A stretch of 64,000 nt of DNA from Podarcis vaucheri. Taxonomy: Eukaryota. Position 1 is the first letter of the stretch. Each line of letters begins with the position of its first letter. The notes under the pieces are model-generated. The model was given only the letters and a program-made list of their open reading frames with translations. It did not search any database and had not been told where the DNA came from. The stretch lies in the NCBI GenBank assembly GCA_965113315.1, contig OZ220365.1. One strand, given 5' to 3'. Position numbers and translations under genes: made by a program. Shown here in pieces: positions 13,519 to 60,078 of this stretch.

Positions 13519-13547
13519 AGCTGGAAGGACAAGTGTACCAACCGAAT
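13519..13547 (-). CDS. CD109: CD109 exon 3, 29-nt micro-exon (DSVGTLVLPA)
   Basis: cag acceptor, gtaagt donor; phase 1 to 0 bridges exons 2 and 4; matches human GSFKTLTLPS. Confidence 0.9.
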
Positions 13548-15145: not shown

Positions 15146-16974
15146 TGTCAGGGAAGAGTTAGAGTTAGAAGATTCCAGTTTCCCAGAGGGAGAAAGCATT
15201 CCCCAAGGGGGGGAGGAGAGCAGTGAATTGAAGAAAAGAGAGCAACAGGTAGGGCAGTGTTTCCCAACCACTGTTCCGCGGCACACTAGTGTGCCGCGAG
15301 ATGTTGCCTGGTGTGCCACGGGAAAAATTAAAAAATTCTAAAGATTTTTTTAAAAAAAAGTCAAATTTTCGATTGGGGCGCCGTCACTAGATGACCCCTG
15401 GGGTTCCCTCCCTCCCTCCCGCTCTGCGCCTCCCTCCTCCTCCTCCTCCGGGGAGGCCCTTCCTGGCTCTCGGCCAAGGCTTGGTGGCTGCCACTCACTC
15501 ACTCGCTCGCCCACCCGTCCCTCCATCCCTGCACCCGGCCTCTCCCCCTCCGTCCCCGGCGCGGGGGCTGCCGGGATCCGTAGTCCCCTCGCCCTTGGGC
15601 TCCGCGCCCGCGCGGGGTGCGCAAACTACGTTTCCCAGCGTGGCCTGGCGGGCCGGGCGTTTTGTTTGAAGCGCTCTTCTCCCGGCCATGGAATGAGCGC
15701 CGCGGCGGCGGGCGGGCGGGCAGGGGCTCTTCCGCGCAGACCCCGCGCAGCCTGCCTGCGCCCCCGCGGAGATCGGGCGGCAGGATGGAGCCCGGGGATC
15801 CCCGCGGAGGCGGAGCAGCAGAGGCGGAGGCTGCCCCCCAGGTAGGGCTGCGTCGTGGTTTTTTTTATTTTTGCAATGCTGCATCCGCGCCGGAGGGGAC
15901 ACATCGGACGTGCAAGGCAATGCATGCGTGCAGGCGTTGCATGGAGTGCAGTGCAATGCAATGGTAACGCGGTGCCCTGCATGCATTCAACTTCCACCGG
16001 CGCTCCGGACTTGGCAGGTGAGGGGGTCCCCAGTGGGCGGCAGAGAGAGCCGGGAGGGCGAAGGGGAGCCGGGGGGGAGCAGCGCTGCTCCCCGAACCGA
16101 GCCCGGGGGGAAACTTCGGCGTCGTTGCGCCGGGTGTTGGAAGCGGAGGCTGGCGGAGGCCCCTCACCTGCAAAACCTGGTCGCCTCTCATATATTTCGT
16201 GCATTGCATTCATCGCCCGCTTTCTCCTCCAAGGAGCTCCTGGGGGTGCACGTGGTTCTCCCTGTGTTATCCTCGCAACAACAGCCCTGCGAGGTGGGTC
16301 AGGCGAGTGGCCCAAGGGAGCACCCAGGGATTGTCCTGGCCAGGTGGGGTGATTTGAACCCTGCTCTCTGCCCGGTCTTCGTCCTCATTTAGCCCCCACA
16401 TGTGCATGACTGTGCATGACTGAGGTTTTCCCTCCTCGTCTTGGCTATGGTGTGAGTCTGTCCTGTTAATTAATGGGGTTCTGCCTTTGGAGAAGATGAG
16501 CCAGCCCTCAAGGAGGTGATTATGTAATTTGCTAGCAATTCATGTCCCTCCCGGCGTGACGCTGCGCGCTGACGTCACGGGGCTGTAATGGTGGTGTGCC
16601 TCGAGATTTTTTTCATGAAACAAGTGTGCCTTTGCCCAAAAAAGGTTGGGAAACACTGAGGTAGGGACCGGCTGTTCCCAGGAAAGGCAAGGGTTAAGTT
16701 CTAGCTCAGATTCGGAGGAGGGGAGATACAAGCCAGCTCTAGCCAGGAGGGTAGGAAAAAGAGTGGGGAAAGCGAAGGGAAGGGCGCCTTCGCCATTTTG
16801 AGAGTGGCTGGTCACGGAGAAGCAGAGCTCAGAAGGTAGCTGAAAGAAGTGACTCTGAGGAATAATATTTAAGAACCGTTTATAAGATTGTTTTGTTAAT
16901 ACGCAATAAAAAGTTATAAAAGAACAAGAAGCATTTGTGTGGTGATCTGAAGAGGACAACGGCCAGTCCTGACA
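15146..16974 (+). mobile_element. Solo LTR (~417 bp once the hAT is removed), interrupted by the hAT insertion
   Basis: Ends TGTCAGG...CCTGACA; 5-bp TSD TGTAC at 15141-45 and 16975-79; AATAAA near 16905. Confidence 0.8.
15255..16658. mobile_element. Non-autonomous hAT (Charlie/Buster-like) element with ~1.2 kb GC-rich cargo
   Basis: TIRs CAGTGTTTCCCAACC / GGTTGGGAAACACTG; perfect 8-bp TSD AGGTAGGG. Confidence 0.92.
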
Positions 16975-29878: not shown

Positions 29879-30689
29879 CTAAAAGAAGGGACAAAACAGA
29901 TTACACTCATGGCCTGATACTCCTTTCACTACTCCAACATCAAGGCTGCAACTCAGTGGCAAAGCTTCTCCTTTGCATGTAGATGGTTCCTGATTCAATC
30001 TATGACTTCTCCAGGTAGTGTGTCCCATCTGAAACTCTGTAGATCCTCTGCCAGTCAGTATGGACTATACTGCACTAGGTGGGCCAGTGGTCTGACTCCG
30101 TATGTGCCAGCTTCCTAAATAATCTCTGGCCTGATTCATATGTGGATTCAGCCAAGTTGCAAGGTGGGGGGGGGGAGAATACAAGTCCTAACTGGTGGAA
30201 AATTACTGCTAAATAAAGCTCCGGAAGCCTCATAAGTATAGGAGAAAAAAATACTGTGCTCAAAAAGTATGGGAATATAAGAAAGGGAAAGTATGGTAAT
30301 ATAAGAAACTTTGCCCGCCCACCGGTAAAATAGTGTAATAACCCCCTAATCATCATCATTCTCAGACCTCTGACTCCACATGCATCCTTTCAGTTTTCAT
30401 AGAAAGTGGATTCAGGCAAAGTGATCTTCTGCTCTTGTAGTGACAGGCTAGAATCCTATACTAGCTTACCTGGGAGTAAGCCCCAATGGACCCCATAAGA
30501 ATTGCCCCCGCAATTATGAACTGAGGAGCTGCGGGCAAAATAGGTGGTTTGACCCCCCCCCCCCAAGAAAAAAAAAACCACTACTGAGTGTGCAACTGGG
30601 CTGTGGGTGATCTGCAGTCTGACACTCGGCACTCTTGCAAGATTTGCCTCGGCTCCCGATTCTGAAATCCCCACGAGTGCAAAATCTGG

Positions 30690-31330
30690 CCTTCTGTGCA
30701 GGACAGGGCAGGAGGAGGCGAGCGGGCAGTAACCGTTTCCCTTATTTCTGCAAGCCTTTCCCACCCACCCCGTCCATCTTCTCCCCACCCACTTCCAGTT
30801 CCTACCCAGCAGCTTCGGCCCACGAAGTTGCCCAGAGGAGGCACAAAGTGAGCCCAACGGCGGCGGGCAGCCGAGCGCCCCTGCGAGCCGCGGGAGCGGC
30901 GTCCGGCAACCGCAGCATCCTGCGGCGGGAATGGGCCGCTTTGCCTGAAGATGCCGCTTCGCGCCTCTTTCGCCTTCTCCCTCGTCTTCTCCTCCTCCTT
31001 CCCCGCGCAGCGTTTGCCTATCCTTTCAGCGGCGGCGGCGGCAGGGAGGAGGGCGCCTTGCTCGGGCAGTGAAAGGCGCTCCTTGTGGAAAAGCGGAGGC
31101 GGCAGCTTCTCTCCCCCGAGCGTCTGGCTCCACCCCGCCCGCCCTTCACGCCCACAGGGCATCCCCACCCTCGGCCGCCGCGGGGCAGGAGCAAGGCCGC
31201 GTGCGGGCATCGCCGCCACCCCCCGCGGCAGCTTGTGAGGCGTGGGTCGGTGGGTGGGTAGGGTCTTTTTGTCCGCGAGCTCCCTCGGGCAACGTTGGGG
31301 GGGGGAGGGCTATGAGGGCGACCGTTTCAG
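30690..31330 (-). promoter_or_regulatory. CD109 CpG island / promoter and 5' UTR
   Basis: GC- and CpG-rich block around the CD109 ATG; GC box (CCCCGCCC) near 31133. Confidence 0.75.
30806..30918 (-). CDS. CD109: CD109 coding exon 1 (signal peptide MLRLPDAAPAARRGARLPAAVGLTLCLLWATSWAEAAG)
   Basis: ATG at 30918 in a CpG island; hydrophobic LTLCLLWATSWA core; phase-2 donor GG|gtagg matches the exon 2 acceptor. Confidence 0.85.
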
Positions 31331-33263
31331 ACAGGCCCACCCCCTTGTGAAGCAGGCACTAGAGGGAAGGAGTTGGGCGAAGCTGTGGGTGGGTTGCTCA
31401 GTGGAAAGAAATCCGAGGACGGCCTCAGCTGAGTCACAGGTTGGATAGGCGAGAGAAGGGTGTTTCCCTCGCAGAGGGTGATGTCTGTGGTACAGAATGT
31501 GCCAGGGAAGGTAGAAAGAGAGAAGCGCTGTTCTAAATCTTACCTCAGGCTCTGGATTACATGCCCTGTTAACGGATCCCCTCCATTTTGCCAACCCCCC
31601 TCGGCCAAATTTACACAGTACCCCCCCCTTTTTTTTGCAATGCACCATCACGGCAGCCTAGCCATCAAAACAAGAGTTAGGTTCCATAGCCCATGTCGTA
31701 TTGGGCACACAATGTGCACATGCATCAGTCACAGGTGGGTTGCCCAAATCATCTGCTTACTTTACGCATCATAAAAGTGCCAGCTCATCGCTTTTAATAA
31801 GTTATTAATGCCCTCTCCACAGGGGCTTGCCTGGCCACTGACTTTGGTGTTGTTTAACTGTCAGATGAATACCTTTACTGTATGTATATATATTCCCACA
31901 TCTTTTAACTTTAGGTTGTACCCTTCGAGGCTTGTGTTTTTTATGCTGTATTGTACATTAATTTGTTTTCATTCTCGTTTGCTTTATTTCTAGTTACGTT
32001 TGGGAATTATGTTATAAGGTGCCCTATAAATACTGTTAATAAATAATGTGGAGGCTTACCCACTGTGACTGAAGAGAGAGAATATTTTCAAAATAATGTC
32101 TGGATTACTTTTCTAGTTGCGTGATTTCAGTAGAACTTGTATACCAAAACTGAAACATGTTTCACCTCTCCGGGTATATTTTGTGAGTAACAAATGTTTT
32201 GGGATTTTTAATGCGTATCAGTTAAAATTATTCTGCAGACTGGGAACAACTTCTAGCAGCTTACCTGCTACTTCCAGCTCCTACCAGATGGATAATGGAT
32301 GCCACAGTTCCTTCCGCAATCTTGTATGAGGCATTTATCTAGTGTGAGCCTTGCAACAACCTCTTCTTCGGGCTTTTAAATACATAGATCAGACACTTTT
32401 TAAAGAGGGAGTAGCTGGGGCAACTGACCCAGGGCTCACACATGTAGAGGGGCCGCGTGAAAATTAGCACCGGTGTATTCTTGCCATTTTTACTTCAATT
32501 TTTCAGAATACTAGTAACATGAACTCCATAAACTTAATCTGGAGGGAAGGGTGCCACAAAACAAACTCCACAGTGGGGTGGCATACTGTCCTAGAGCTAT
32601 AACAGCATGAGTAACTGATTGTTATTGCAGGCAGCATGAATAGCAGCTCAGCCCAATCACGATGCCCTCAGGCTCTCTGCTTCCCTCATACACAGATTCT
32701 GATTGCTAGCAGACTCAGAAAAGAAGAAAGACAAACAGTTCAAATTGGGCACACTAAGATAAAGCAGAGGATGATGCATTACAAAGTTATCTCAGTCTGT
32801 TCCCTTTGCTCACAGCATCCAATTGCACAACATAGCCTTTCCAAACTCCCTTCTTACGTTACTGAAACCTTGTTTTAAACTTCCAGTTTTCTCCACTCAG
32901 GTCAATCCCTACGCTCTACTCAAACTTCCATCATTGTTTTAAACCAGCACTTTCCCCCTCACATTGTTATTCCATCCCTGCTTTATTCAAACCACTGCTG
33001 CTGTTTAAAATGGTCACTTCTTTCCACTCAATATCTTTCTGTCTCTGATTTACCCAAGGCCCCTGGGCACATGCAAATGTACTCATGCAGAACCTGTTAT
33101 CAGCTTCTGCTAAAGACATGCAAGTTATGGGTGAAGCTAGCATGAAAACAGGGCTCTTGATTAGTGCATCAATGTTAATTGCATTTTGCAAATGCGTTTT
33201 CAACTTCTGTTCTTCAATAAGGGAGCAGATCGCAAAGCAGCTTCCTATATGCATTACAAAATA

Positions 33264-38377: not shown

Positions 38378-39089
38378 CTGCTCCAAGCCAGGAAAGCAGA
38401 GATCCATGGGTATTTGTTTACATGTGCACAGACAACTTCTGTGATCTACCACACTTAAACAAAAGAGCAGTCCAAAAATTCAAACAAGTGATGCCTCACT
38501 CCAACCTTAGGCAAAGATTTAGAGTTGTTCAAATGAAAGTGCAGGCCTGGCCAGTGTGCAGGCTGAGATGTGGGTCCTTGCCTGCCTTCCCTCAGAACTG
38601 ACAAGTTGTTAGTTCAGGAATCCTCAAGTCAGGAAATCAGCAGCTTAACAGCCTTAACATGTGTAGCATGATAATAAAAAAAAATGGAATTACGTTTTTG
38701 CGTACTTATCACATTTAGCATAAGTTGCATTTTGCTTCCCTCTGACCTCAGTCCTTTCCATTCGACAAAACAAAGGATAGCGGCAAGGAGGGGAGCAGAA
38801 CTTAGGTTTGAGGGATCTACGTTGCTTTTTGGTAAGACCCAGAGATCCAGGAATCTGAGCCAACTACAAACGATATACACTTAAGAAATTCTTAACGCAG
38901 GCATTGGCATCTGAGCTCACCGTCCTTCCACACTCCCAGTCACCTTTACCGCCCGCCCGCTTTCTTCATTTCAGTAGGAAAAATTAGGGAAAAGGTATTT
39001 TACTGCTGCCATTATTAAATGATTGGGGAGTCATAAAACCTTGCTTATCTGCGGCAAGCTAGCCAGAAATAAAGTCCTGATCTTCCGCC

Positions 39090-39900
39090 TGCACATCACG
39101 AGTCAACGCCGGGAGGAATCCAGCGGCGATTTGGCCGACGCCGGAGGGGCTTCCTTCCATTGGTTGCCTTAGGCAGCGGCATCCTCAGCCACCGCCTTTC
39201 CCCCCAGCAACCAATCAGCAGAAAGGCTTCTGCCCGCAGCAAAGATGGCCGAGGAGGAGGGCGGGGGAAGGAAAACAAACTCGTTCCATAGGCGCCGAGC
39301 CGCCGAATCATGATAGCGGCGGCACTTCCGCCCGGCTGCAAGTCACGTGCCTGCTGCTTGCCTTGCCTTTTCTGGCAGCTGACTTTGGTGGGAAGCCGCC
39401 GACAGCCGGGCTGGGTTCGTTTAGGGAGCCCTGGTTTCGCGTTTGCTTTTGCCCTGAAGGGGAGCATGCAGACCCCGGAACCCGAAGAGGCGGAGGAAGA
39501 AGAGGACCGTACCCCGCTCCTGCTGCGAGAAGCCCAGCCCATCGGCAAGGCGGGTGAGAGCAGCGGCAGGAGGGACCGCTTGCCCCCCAGCGCACACCTC
39601 CCGCCCTCTTTTTGTCTCCAGCAGCCAGTTCCTCTCGCTTTGAGGAGCTGTGGGGGGTTGGCGGGAGAGAGACATTTCTGTGGGGGTGCCTCCACCGTCT
39701 CCAGTATCCTGTGGAGAGGTGTCTTAACAGTCCCGGTCCTGTGCAGGTTTGCCAGTAGCTAGCAAACGCAGCATTATCCCCCTTTATTCGGAAGGAAGTC
39801 CTGACTTCCCAGGACTGCCGTCTGTCGCCATGAGTATCACCATCGACGACGGCGACCAGCTTCAGAGGGGTGGTCGGCGACAGCAAACGCGGGGAGAGGT
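39090..39900 (+). promoter_or_regulatory. SLC17A5 CpG-island promoter with two CCAAT boxes, a YY1-like site and a CLEAR-like E-box
   Basis: ATTGG 39159-63; CCAAT 39211-15; AAGATGGC 39242-49; GTCACGTG 39342-49. Confidence 0.75.
39466..39553 (+). CDS. SLC17A5: SLC17A5 (sialin) coding exon 1 (MQTPEPEEAEEEEDRTPLLLREAQPIGKA)
   Basis: Conserved lysosomal dileucine motif DRTPLL; donor G|gtgag, phase 1. Confidence 0.93.
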
Positions 39901-40292
39901 CTTGTGGCAGCGTGAAAGCTAACGGGTTTATTATACTTTCGTGGGCTACGTTGCATTTGGGTGAACAGTTGCCTTCACTTGCCAGCTACACACATGCATA
40001 CGCAGATGTCGAGGGAGAAACCTCAAAGTGTGGGTTCAAGAGTCTATGAAGTGTTAAGGCAATTTACAACCACACAGCAGTACTGTAGTAATAATACATA
40101 TATCTGACGGAGTAGCTCTAGTCACTGTGGGCAGCTTCCACAAAATATAAAAACAATGAAACATCAAGTTGTTTAACAACTTTTTTAAAAAAACAACAAC
40201 AACTACAAATAGTAGCCCAGAGCAGAGATCTTGAAATTACAGACTGATTGTTGTGAATGATTGGGCAGGCTTATCATGTGCAGTATACATTA

Positions 40293-46938: not shown

Positions 46939-47135
46939 CGCCAATATGCTGCTCTGCTCGCCTCAGCTTAGCGGTCTGGGCCTTCTTGGGATTCTTTCTC
47001 TTATATGCACTTCGTGTCAATTTAAGTGTTGCCCTGGTGGACATGGTAGAATCAAATACAAGCTTGACCAAAAATACTTCTTCAAATGTGTGCAAAGAAC
47101 ATTCTTCTACCCCAGTTGTTGCTCGTAACACTACG
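46939..47135 (+). CDS. SLC17A5: SLC17A5 exon 2 ([20 protein letters not shown]...[12 protein letters not shown]...ARNTT)
   Basis: CCSAR (human R39 site) and [15 protein letters not shown]; 197 nt; GT-AG. Confidence 0.97.
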
Positions 47136-48254: not shown

Positions 48255-48774
48255 CAGTGTTTCCCAACCGGTGTTCCGCGGCACACTAGTGTGCCGTGAG
48301 ACACCGGCTGGTGTGCCGTGGGAGGGAGGCGGGCGAGTCGGGCGGCGAGAGGCGGCGGCGGCGAGGATCCGCGTCGAGCCGGGGGCGGCTCCGCGGTGGT
48401 GGTGCCGAGCGGCGGGGCAGCGCGCGCAAAAGGGAGGAGCGCGAGACAGCGGAGGAGGAGGAGGCCGGCATGTCCGGGCAGCAGCAGCAACAGCAGCAGC
48501 AGCAACTCCCGGCGACGGCTCCTCCTCCGCCCGCTATCGCCGCCACCACCACAACAGCCGCCGCCGCCTCAGCTGCTGCCGTCCCTCAGTCCCTCGCTCT
48601 GCTGCCTCCTCCCACCCCGGCAAGGGGAAGGGAAAAAACGTTCACTTTTGTGCGTCCCTCCCGGCGTGACGCTGCGCGCTGACGTCACGGGGCGGGGCTT
48701 TAATGGTGGTGTGCCGCGAGATTTTTTTCCGGTAAACAGGTGTGCCGTTGCCCAAAAACGTTTGGGAAACACTG
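48255..48774. mobile_element. Non-autonomous hAT element of the same family with a different ~330 bp GC-rich cargo
   Basis: TIRs CAGTGTTTCCCAA / TTGGGAAACACTG; perfect 8-bp TSD CCCTAGAG; ~70 bp left and ~120 bp right ends shared with the 15255 element. Confidence 0.92.
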
Positions 48775-59878: not shown

Positions 59879-60078
59879 NNNNNNNNNNNNNNNNNNNNNN
59901 NNNNNNNNNNNNNNNNNNNNNNNNNNNNNNNNNNNNNNNNNNNNNNNNNNNNNNNNNNNNNNNNNNNNNNNNNNNNNNNNNNNNNNNNNNNNNNNNNNNN
60001 NNNNNNNNNNNNNNNNNNNNNNNNNNNNNNNNNNNNNNNNNNNNNNNNNNNNNNNNNNNNNNNNNNNNNNNNNNNNNN
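59879..60078. other. Assembly gap (200 N)
   Basis: Run of exactly 200 N, typical of a fixed-size scaffolding gap. Confidence 0.99.

Follow-up and report, generated by a model that had tools for sequence, protein, structure and literature searches.

Capture of host sequence by transposons with terminal inverted repeats (TIRs) was surveyed in animals by Tan et al. (2021; PMC8277862), who list 370 Pack-TIRs in 100 animal genomes, 4 of them multicopy, with an example of 3 copies; the supplement files of that survey, searched by term, give 0 Pack-TIRs for the one lizard, anoCar2. As described there, multicopy Pack-TIRs are TIR elements, mostly hAT, arranged around host sequence with an element-free parent, and they have distinct target duplications and GC-rich cargo; Pack-hAT-N8_XT, for instance, holds the 5' UTR of CAPSL. 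The element reported here, from a 64,000-nucleotide stretch of Podarcis vaucheri DNA (the window), is alike in these respects. It differs from the animal Pack-TIRs of that survey in that one cargo is present in at least 917 copies and several gene starts have been captured serially. By the tested features, the lizard family is a multicopy Pack-TIR, with a copy number that exceeds those of the few-copy animal cases of PMC8277862 by a factor of hundreds.

In bats, HelibatN3 Helitrons with NUBPL sequence carry a promoter, 5' UTR, first exon and a portion of intron 1 in about a thousand copies (PMC4224331, PMC4778049). On these accounts they resemble the lizard hAT in their 5'-end bias, serial capture and a splice donor able to trap exons, and are unlike it in being rolling-circle elements with another mechanism; of the two, promoter-driven transcripts are demonstrated in bats only. 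Plant Pack-MULE and Pack-TYPE elements (PMC5861414, PMC8903248) are likewise non-autonomous and move by cut and paste; they copy GC-rich parts of genes and combine parts of several genes, and the same two sources record Pack-hATs in maize. The lizard family shares its lean towards promoters with bat Helitrons and rice Pack-MULEs. Pack-MULEs as treated there are plant elements with long Mutator TIRs and 8-11-bp duplications, whereas the lizard element is a vertebrate one that has short TIRs and carries single cargos in very many copies. Buster-family hAT MITEs such as Mar (PMC3517528) share with it short TIRs, an 8-bp duplication of consensus nnnTAnnn and a non-autonomous nature; host promoter cargo is not part of the description of Mar in that source. 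No published account of this hAT family in lacertids was found, and it may sit in Repbase or Dfam with its cargo unrecognised.

We read the element in the window as one of at least 917 non-autonomous hAT copies that carry the promoter, coding exon 1 and part of intron 1 of KRBA1, and at this site as a likely methylated, mostly silent passenger (probability roughly 0.75).

Structure of the element and its source gene

The 1404-bp non-autonomous hAT element, a Pack-hAT with KRBA1 cargo, occupies positions 15255-16658 of the window (plus strand). CAGTGTTTCCCAA is present at both ends as short (13-bp) TIRs; the inverted match runs without a mismatch over about 13-15 bp, and the subterminal parts differ between left and right. 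Paralogous empty sites, which join 15249 to 16658/16659, support the 8-bp target duplication. Helitrons have rolling-circle ends without TIRs or target duplications, whereas this element has both, and long Mutator-type TIRs of the Pack-MULE kind are absent from it. The host repeat that it entered is probably solo-LTR-like, judging by its ends. The surrounding gene, named CD109 through a PDB match (E 1e-20), is encoded by the minus strand, with exon 2 at approximately 29878-29718. The placement of the hAT antisense in CD109 intron 2, proposed in an earlier note made from these letters, held up on the PDB match and the exon candidates, from which the exons were provisionally numbered. Features are as follows.

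13519..13547, minus: candidate for CD109 exon 3 (29 nt), ranked first among 9 that fit the frame
15146..16974, unstranded: host repeat entered by the hAT, about 417 bp without it, with TG...CA ends and a 5-bp duplication, TGTAC
15247-15254 (left) and 16659-16666 (right), unstranded: target site duplication, 8 bp, AGGTAGGG, with TA at positions 4-5
15255..15323, plus: left terminal region, common to all members of the hAT family
15324..15385, plus: spacer that belongs to the element lineage, AT-rich and not KRBA1-derived, also in sister element L073
15386..16400, plus: cargo block 1, taken from KRBA1 (promoter, 5' region, coding exon 1, start of intron 1) and aligned to G000:C33:63263692-63262615 (minus)
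15572..15584, minus: second ACTAYRNNNCCCR motif (M4; ZNF143/THAP11-type), by pattern match
15625..15637, plus: the ACTAYRNNNCCCR motif of the earlier note, the same in the donor
15688..15696, plus: upstream ATG in strong context, encoding M-E-stop, also in the KRBA1 donor
15785..15841, plus: coding part of KRBA1 exon 1, 19 codons, with a phase-0 splice donor at 15841/15842, as in the donor locus and Lacerta agilis KRBA1
16401..16409, plus: 9-nt filler TGTGCATGA, copied from adjacent bases, where KRBA1 intron 1 has lost 1.98 kb
16410..16538, plus: cargo block 2, KRBA1 intron 1, aligned to C33:63260631-63260503
16539-16543, plus: 5-nt filler TTCAT ahead of the right terminal region
16544..16658, plus: right terminal region, common to the hAT family

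In the earlier note, 15325-16543 was said to resemble an intact promoter of a host gene followed by its coding exon 1 and intron 1. That composition is confirmed, with KRBA1 as the source by two-block alignment; the host-derived part is 15386-16538, and the cargo is not intact, having a deletion of about 2 kb in intron 1 relative to the KRBA1 donor. The signals named in that note are all in place: a ZNF143/Staf-like motif, ACTACGTTTCCCAGCGTGG, at 15625; an ATG at 15785 in AGGATGG, followed by 19 codons (MEPGDPRGGGAAEAEAAPQ); a splice donor, CAG/GTAGGG, at 15841/15842, whose phase 0 is borne out by the KRBA1 gene; and abundant CpGs, with an observed/expected ratio of 0.94 in 15501-16000 against 0.35 over the window. 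A minus-strand motif of the same class, at 15572-15584, had been missed, and a further out-of-frame ATG at 15693 is likewise present in the KRBA1 donor. The M4 motif is as defined in PMC5006282. Exactly two ACTAYRNNNCCCR matches occur in the 64 kb; because two or more were also reached in 10 of 100 shuffles, the motif alone is weak, and it is the match in the donor that makes it real.

The host gene with this first exon, which the note had left to be found, is KRBA1. A protein search with a 40-residue in-frame query gave one match among 158 candidates, Lacerta agilis KRBA1 (P0001; E 1.4e-3), which reads from the 19-codon exon through the same junction into the KRAB box. The KRBA1 locus is at G000:C33:63.23-63.26 Mb, where the remaining protein maps to 63.23-63.25 Mb and the cargo aligns 16 kb upstream of it, as blocks 15386-16400 and 16410-16538 with 1.98 kb between them in the donor. 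The motif, ATG and CAG/GTAGGG are also found in the donor, which differs from the copy majority by 23 substitutions over 1042 aligned bases; its intron ends CACAG/ACCTCC at C33:63247597, in phase 0, and the KRAB exon is next. No element ends were found around the donor in 40 kb. The KRBA1 origin of the cargo is, in practice, certain. A junction pattern aimed at the donor returned 8 element copies only, since its anchor included filler bases. At the deletion joint 9 bases of nearby sequence are repeated, and at the right joint 5 bases have been added. Template switching during repair synthesis, the mechanism that we infer, would be expected to leave such marks; gap-filling and fork-switching models for capture are set out in PMC8277862.

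Two older remnants appear to lie within the cargo. Its intron at 16270-16400 resembles what we take to be an old SINE remnant, which in the donor continues across the deletion, and its left edge presumably falls in a LINE-tail-like remnant that is repeated upstream of KRBA1. At 59879-60078 the window has an assembly gap of 200 N.

Copies of the element and other captured gene starts

The number of copies, at least 917, and a lineage with several other captured gene starts had gone unseen in the earlier note. A search of the lizard's own genome with 15560-15900 gave 983 candidates, of which the 40 scored were 97-100% identical. All of 30 loci fetched (29 other full-length copies) align across the entire element and not beyond, and in this first copy set identical 8-bp duplications were seen in 26 of the 28 loci at which the two ends could be matched. 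A 21-base sequence across the joint of the cargo with the right end has 917 exact matches in the genome, and the right end of the hAT family 3387; the reversed control gave 0 in both cases. A second sample consisted of 40 KRBA1-cargo copies in positional order along C1. Both ends were found in 36 of these 40, with an identical 8-bp duplication in 35/36 and TA at its positions 4-5 in 35/36, so that the Buster features, namely short TIRs, an 8-bp duplication and nnnTAnnn, are all present in the lizard family. The copies have distinct target duplications and unrelated flanks and lie far from the parent KRBA1. Across the same 40, the forward motif was intact in 33, the ATG in 37, the splice donor in 37 and the in-frame exon in 31; with these signals mostly intact, activity of copies is possible.

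No autonomous partner with the same ends was found in the 42 loci checked out of 64 matches to the hAT domain PF05699 (150 of 369 candidates scored). A young multicopy transposase, L200-L202, was rejected as the partner on account of its other ends. These three loci (G000:C41:14.27 Mb, C41:13.02 Mb and C42:1.37 Mb) belong to another young hAT family, with 99% identical transposase-bearing copies and a GC-rich 5' part.

The window also holds a sister element.

48255..48774, plus: sister hAT with the same ends and the duplication CCCTAGAG, in which a promoter piece from C29 is joined to a deleted RANBP9 exon 1 (ATG 48470)

It lies sense in an intron of a plus-strand MFS transporter gene (Pfam MFS_1), which we take to be SLC17A5. 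The CpG islands of CD109 (minus) and of this transporter gene, at 30500-31500 and 39000-40000, are head to head and about 8 kb apart. A search with the sister element gave 1197 candidates, and the 40 scored were 99-100% identical; because some 1200 candidates are near-identical, the RANBP9-type element must be very young. Its peptide in the window gave 0 matches in a protein search (2682 candidates), and a longer relative has the full first exon with a donor site and matches RANBP9 (PDB match, E 2e-31); the 520-bp type has lost most of the promoter and the donor site. For the RANBP9 donor locus, a pattern search gave 20 genome matches, of which the 5 examined were all element copies, and the donor was not found among them. 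The first approximately 100 bases of this cargo come from a CpG island at C29:42.80 Mb that has no element ends, and in other copies 950 bases of the same promoter are present; a long reading frame 7 kb from the island presumably belongs to TCF20.

Further gene starts were found within the same ends. One variant has gained, in addition, the start of fumarate hydratase (FH), with promoter, exon 1 and intron, for which 10 genome matches were obtained, 9 of them element copies and 1 the donor, at C34:55.43 Mb and without element ends. Nine such elements of about 2 kb (L118 at G000:C1:35532326-35535351, L119-L124, L126 and L127) stack the C29 promoter and the FH promoter, exon 1 and intron; the pieces were thus stacked serially. 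L084:1053-1220 is a CDK5R2 coding piece in a family member (E 4e-20). CDK5R2 and RANBP9 were named by protein match alone, while KRBA1, FH and the C29 promoter were located in the genome without the element. Three Podarcis muralis proteins, P0002, P0065 and P0066, start with the element-derived frame of L084 ahead of the CDK5R2 piece. They look like gene models built on CDK5R2-bearing copies, a point for annotation, and suggest, from sequence, that the hAT family is also in P. muralis.

Thirty family members taken in order along C1 comprised 10 KRBA1, 6 RANBP9-type, 1 CDK5R2, 11 with other inserts and 2 near-empty, the latter with little besides a 486-bp GC-rich core. Several of the 11 other inserts are GC-rich and then run into a GT donor-like site. 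Cargo is not always a first exon: some inserts are AT-rich intron pieces, and one piece looks like an internal exon. The bias towards promoters is an apparent leaning among the sampled members. A donor pattern for the cargo of L093 gave 0 genome matches.

Other members showed additional structure. L107 and L110 (G000:C1:79.86 Mb and 137.15 Mb) are long composites in which the C29 promoter and part of RANBP9 exon 1 are combined with nested repeats and with a further exon, GT donor included, that may be from a transglutaminase. Further cargos are carried by L075, by L080/L081/L098, by L087/L097, by L082/L093/L096 and by L071/L092, several of them GC-rich over a stretch that runs up to a GT donor-like site; one of these groups has a GCGCATGCGC palindrome, presumably NRF1-like. 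L075 contains a short TTAGGG run, and L082/L096 an internal inverted duplication.

CpG decay and RNA over the copies

The abundance of CpGs had been taken in the earlier note to mean little methylation decay. Transition rates contradict this. They were determined in 39 of the 40 position-sampled copies, L164 being dropped for a nested insertion: 355 of 7528 CpG positions (4.7%) carry transitions, against 85 of 20324 other C/G sites (0.42%). An earlier set of 30, the best matches to this copy, had given 4.1% and 0.63%, and the rates were redone by position. CpG C>T/G>A changes are thus about 8-11 times faster than those at other C/G sites in the copies, this one included (9/192 against 3/513, p = 0.0007), which is not the germ-line protection of an active CpG-island promoter. 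Decay in the promoter part is at least as fast as in the intron (5.5-5.7% against 4.2-4.4%, all 40 copies). In comparison with the copy majority, the KRBA1 donor has transitions at 4/198 CpG sites despite its greater non-CpG distance (14/844); its own CpG ratio is still raised (p = 0.05, differences unpolarised). With non-CpG divergence of the family at 0.9% and CpG transitions fast, the CpG richness of the copies reflects youth, not protection. CpG decay speaks to germ-line methylation only and not to the somatic state.

Of the alternatives to a silent passenger family, the one that survives best is that captured promoters help the element: their CpG-island DNA and factor sites would keep new germ-line copies open or transcribed for a time, such that promoter variants would be mobilised more and outgrow empty ones, and a minority would act as promoters. 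Near-empty members are indeed few (2/30), the two main cargo types make up 16/30, and bat Helitrons with 5' gene parts are also higher in copy number in the account of PMC4224331; a contig break at the donor site in X5, described below, fits as well. Per-copy CpG counts are, however, Poisson-like (mean 9.1, variance 10.3, p = 0.27), and because they fit a Poisson distribution no protected subclass is visible among the 39 copies. The 520-bp RANBP9 type is equally abundant despite its lost promoter and donor site, burst sizes may be chance, and with a GC-rich core, choice of template by sequence likeness or open chromatin gives the same bias without selection. We regard such a benefit as possible but doubtful.

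Raw RNA runs were read to 6-12% each (X23 and X24 to about 12%), and their source animals may be of another species or lack this insertion; X1, X5 and X9 were guessed to be RNA. For the whole family pooled, reads on 15560-15900 (341 bp) numbered 34 in X23, 58 in X24 and four in X21. X23 and X24 cover the whole element at low depth, with the region upstream of the motifs and the intron as deep as exon 1, and no start pile-up was seen in the element in X23, X24 or X21. RNA over the KRBA1-cargo family is accordingly most readily taken as read-through from host transcripts. In X24, reads are skewed to the G allele at 15623 (20/21, against 18/39 copies), and a few loci or KRBA1 itself may dominate them. 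In X5, two contigs overlapping by 30 bases meet precisely at 15841. Such a break suggests branching at a donor site that is used somewhere, with KRBA1 or a copy as source; X1 and X9 contigs run through 15841 without a break.

The proposal that this copy is an active promoter from which a chimeric or antisense transcript starts within intron 2 of CD109 found no support in the RNA examined, where neither a start, a splice nor a private allele was seen, in runs that may lack the insertion. At 15841, the junction at which the earlier note had advised looking for such reads, there was no chimeric joint or loose end in X23, X24 or X21, again from animals that may lack it. This copy has the private bases 15485 T, 15712 G, 15856 T and 15901 A; its base at 15712 was present in 0/9, 0/19 and 0/1 reads (0/29 in total), a weak test for the same reason, and no read carried the window base at 15901, 16157 or 16488, the same proviso holding there. 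Both M4 motifs, the ATG and the splice donor are intact and equal to those of KRBA1, just 9/192 CpG positions have decayed, and bat Helitron copies with the NUBPL promoter do act in this way at few loci, as PMC4778049 relates. The CpG decay of this copy nevertheless equals the family mean, and the nearest same-strand coding acceptor seen, at 46939, is in phase 1 and would leave the transcript out of frame. We consider an active CD109 promoter unlikely.

Origin and meaning of the family

That the KRBA1 promoter itself derives from an old insertion of the element is very improbable: donor and copy are highly identical, as this would predict, but the donor has no ends or duplication and holds 2 kb more, the same exon and upstream frame are in Lacerta agilis KRBA1, and unrelated host genes lie inside the same ends. 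Segmental duplication, retrocopying or an assembly artefact can hardly be entertained, given that every copy is bordered by an 8-bp duplication of its own and set in unrelated flanks, that the intron is present and poly-A absent, and that a share of 0.49-0.69 of the element's words, about half or above, occurs in six DNA-sized runs with six organism labels.

For the family of non-autonomous hAT copies that we favour, capture would occur when repair or replication within a short, GC-rich element switches template to an open CpG-island promoter and then returns, by gap filling or fork switching. The new element would then be multiplied in trans by a transposase, which was not found among the loci checked, presumably over the past few million years. 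The new copies would be methylated in the germ line, and RNA over the family would be mostly read-through from host transcripts.

The finding is the family and not an antisense CD109 promoter, which is unsupported. High-copy promoter capture in vertebrates is known for bat Helitrons, and for TIR transposons the cases in PMC8277862 are few-copy alone; the young hAT lineage of this lizard, in which two gene starts have each reached about a thousand copies and donors can be identified, extends the process to cut-and-paste elements. Hundreds of near-identical copies of a CpG-island promoter in varied chromatin are also a natural experiment on whether sequence alone (CpG density and ZNF143/THAP11-type sites) prevents methylation, and for the germ line the CpG decay answers mostly not. 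More tentatively, this recently active lineage may be a collector of promoters: it would capture CpG-island promoters and first exons serially, the captured promoters would raise its own transposition, and some of its approximately 3000 copies might start transcripts or trap exons and so contribute, much as Pack-MULEs or Helibat elements do, to regulatory variation in lacertids.
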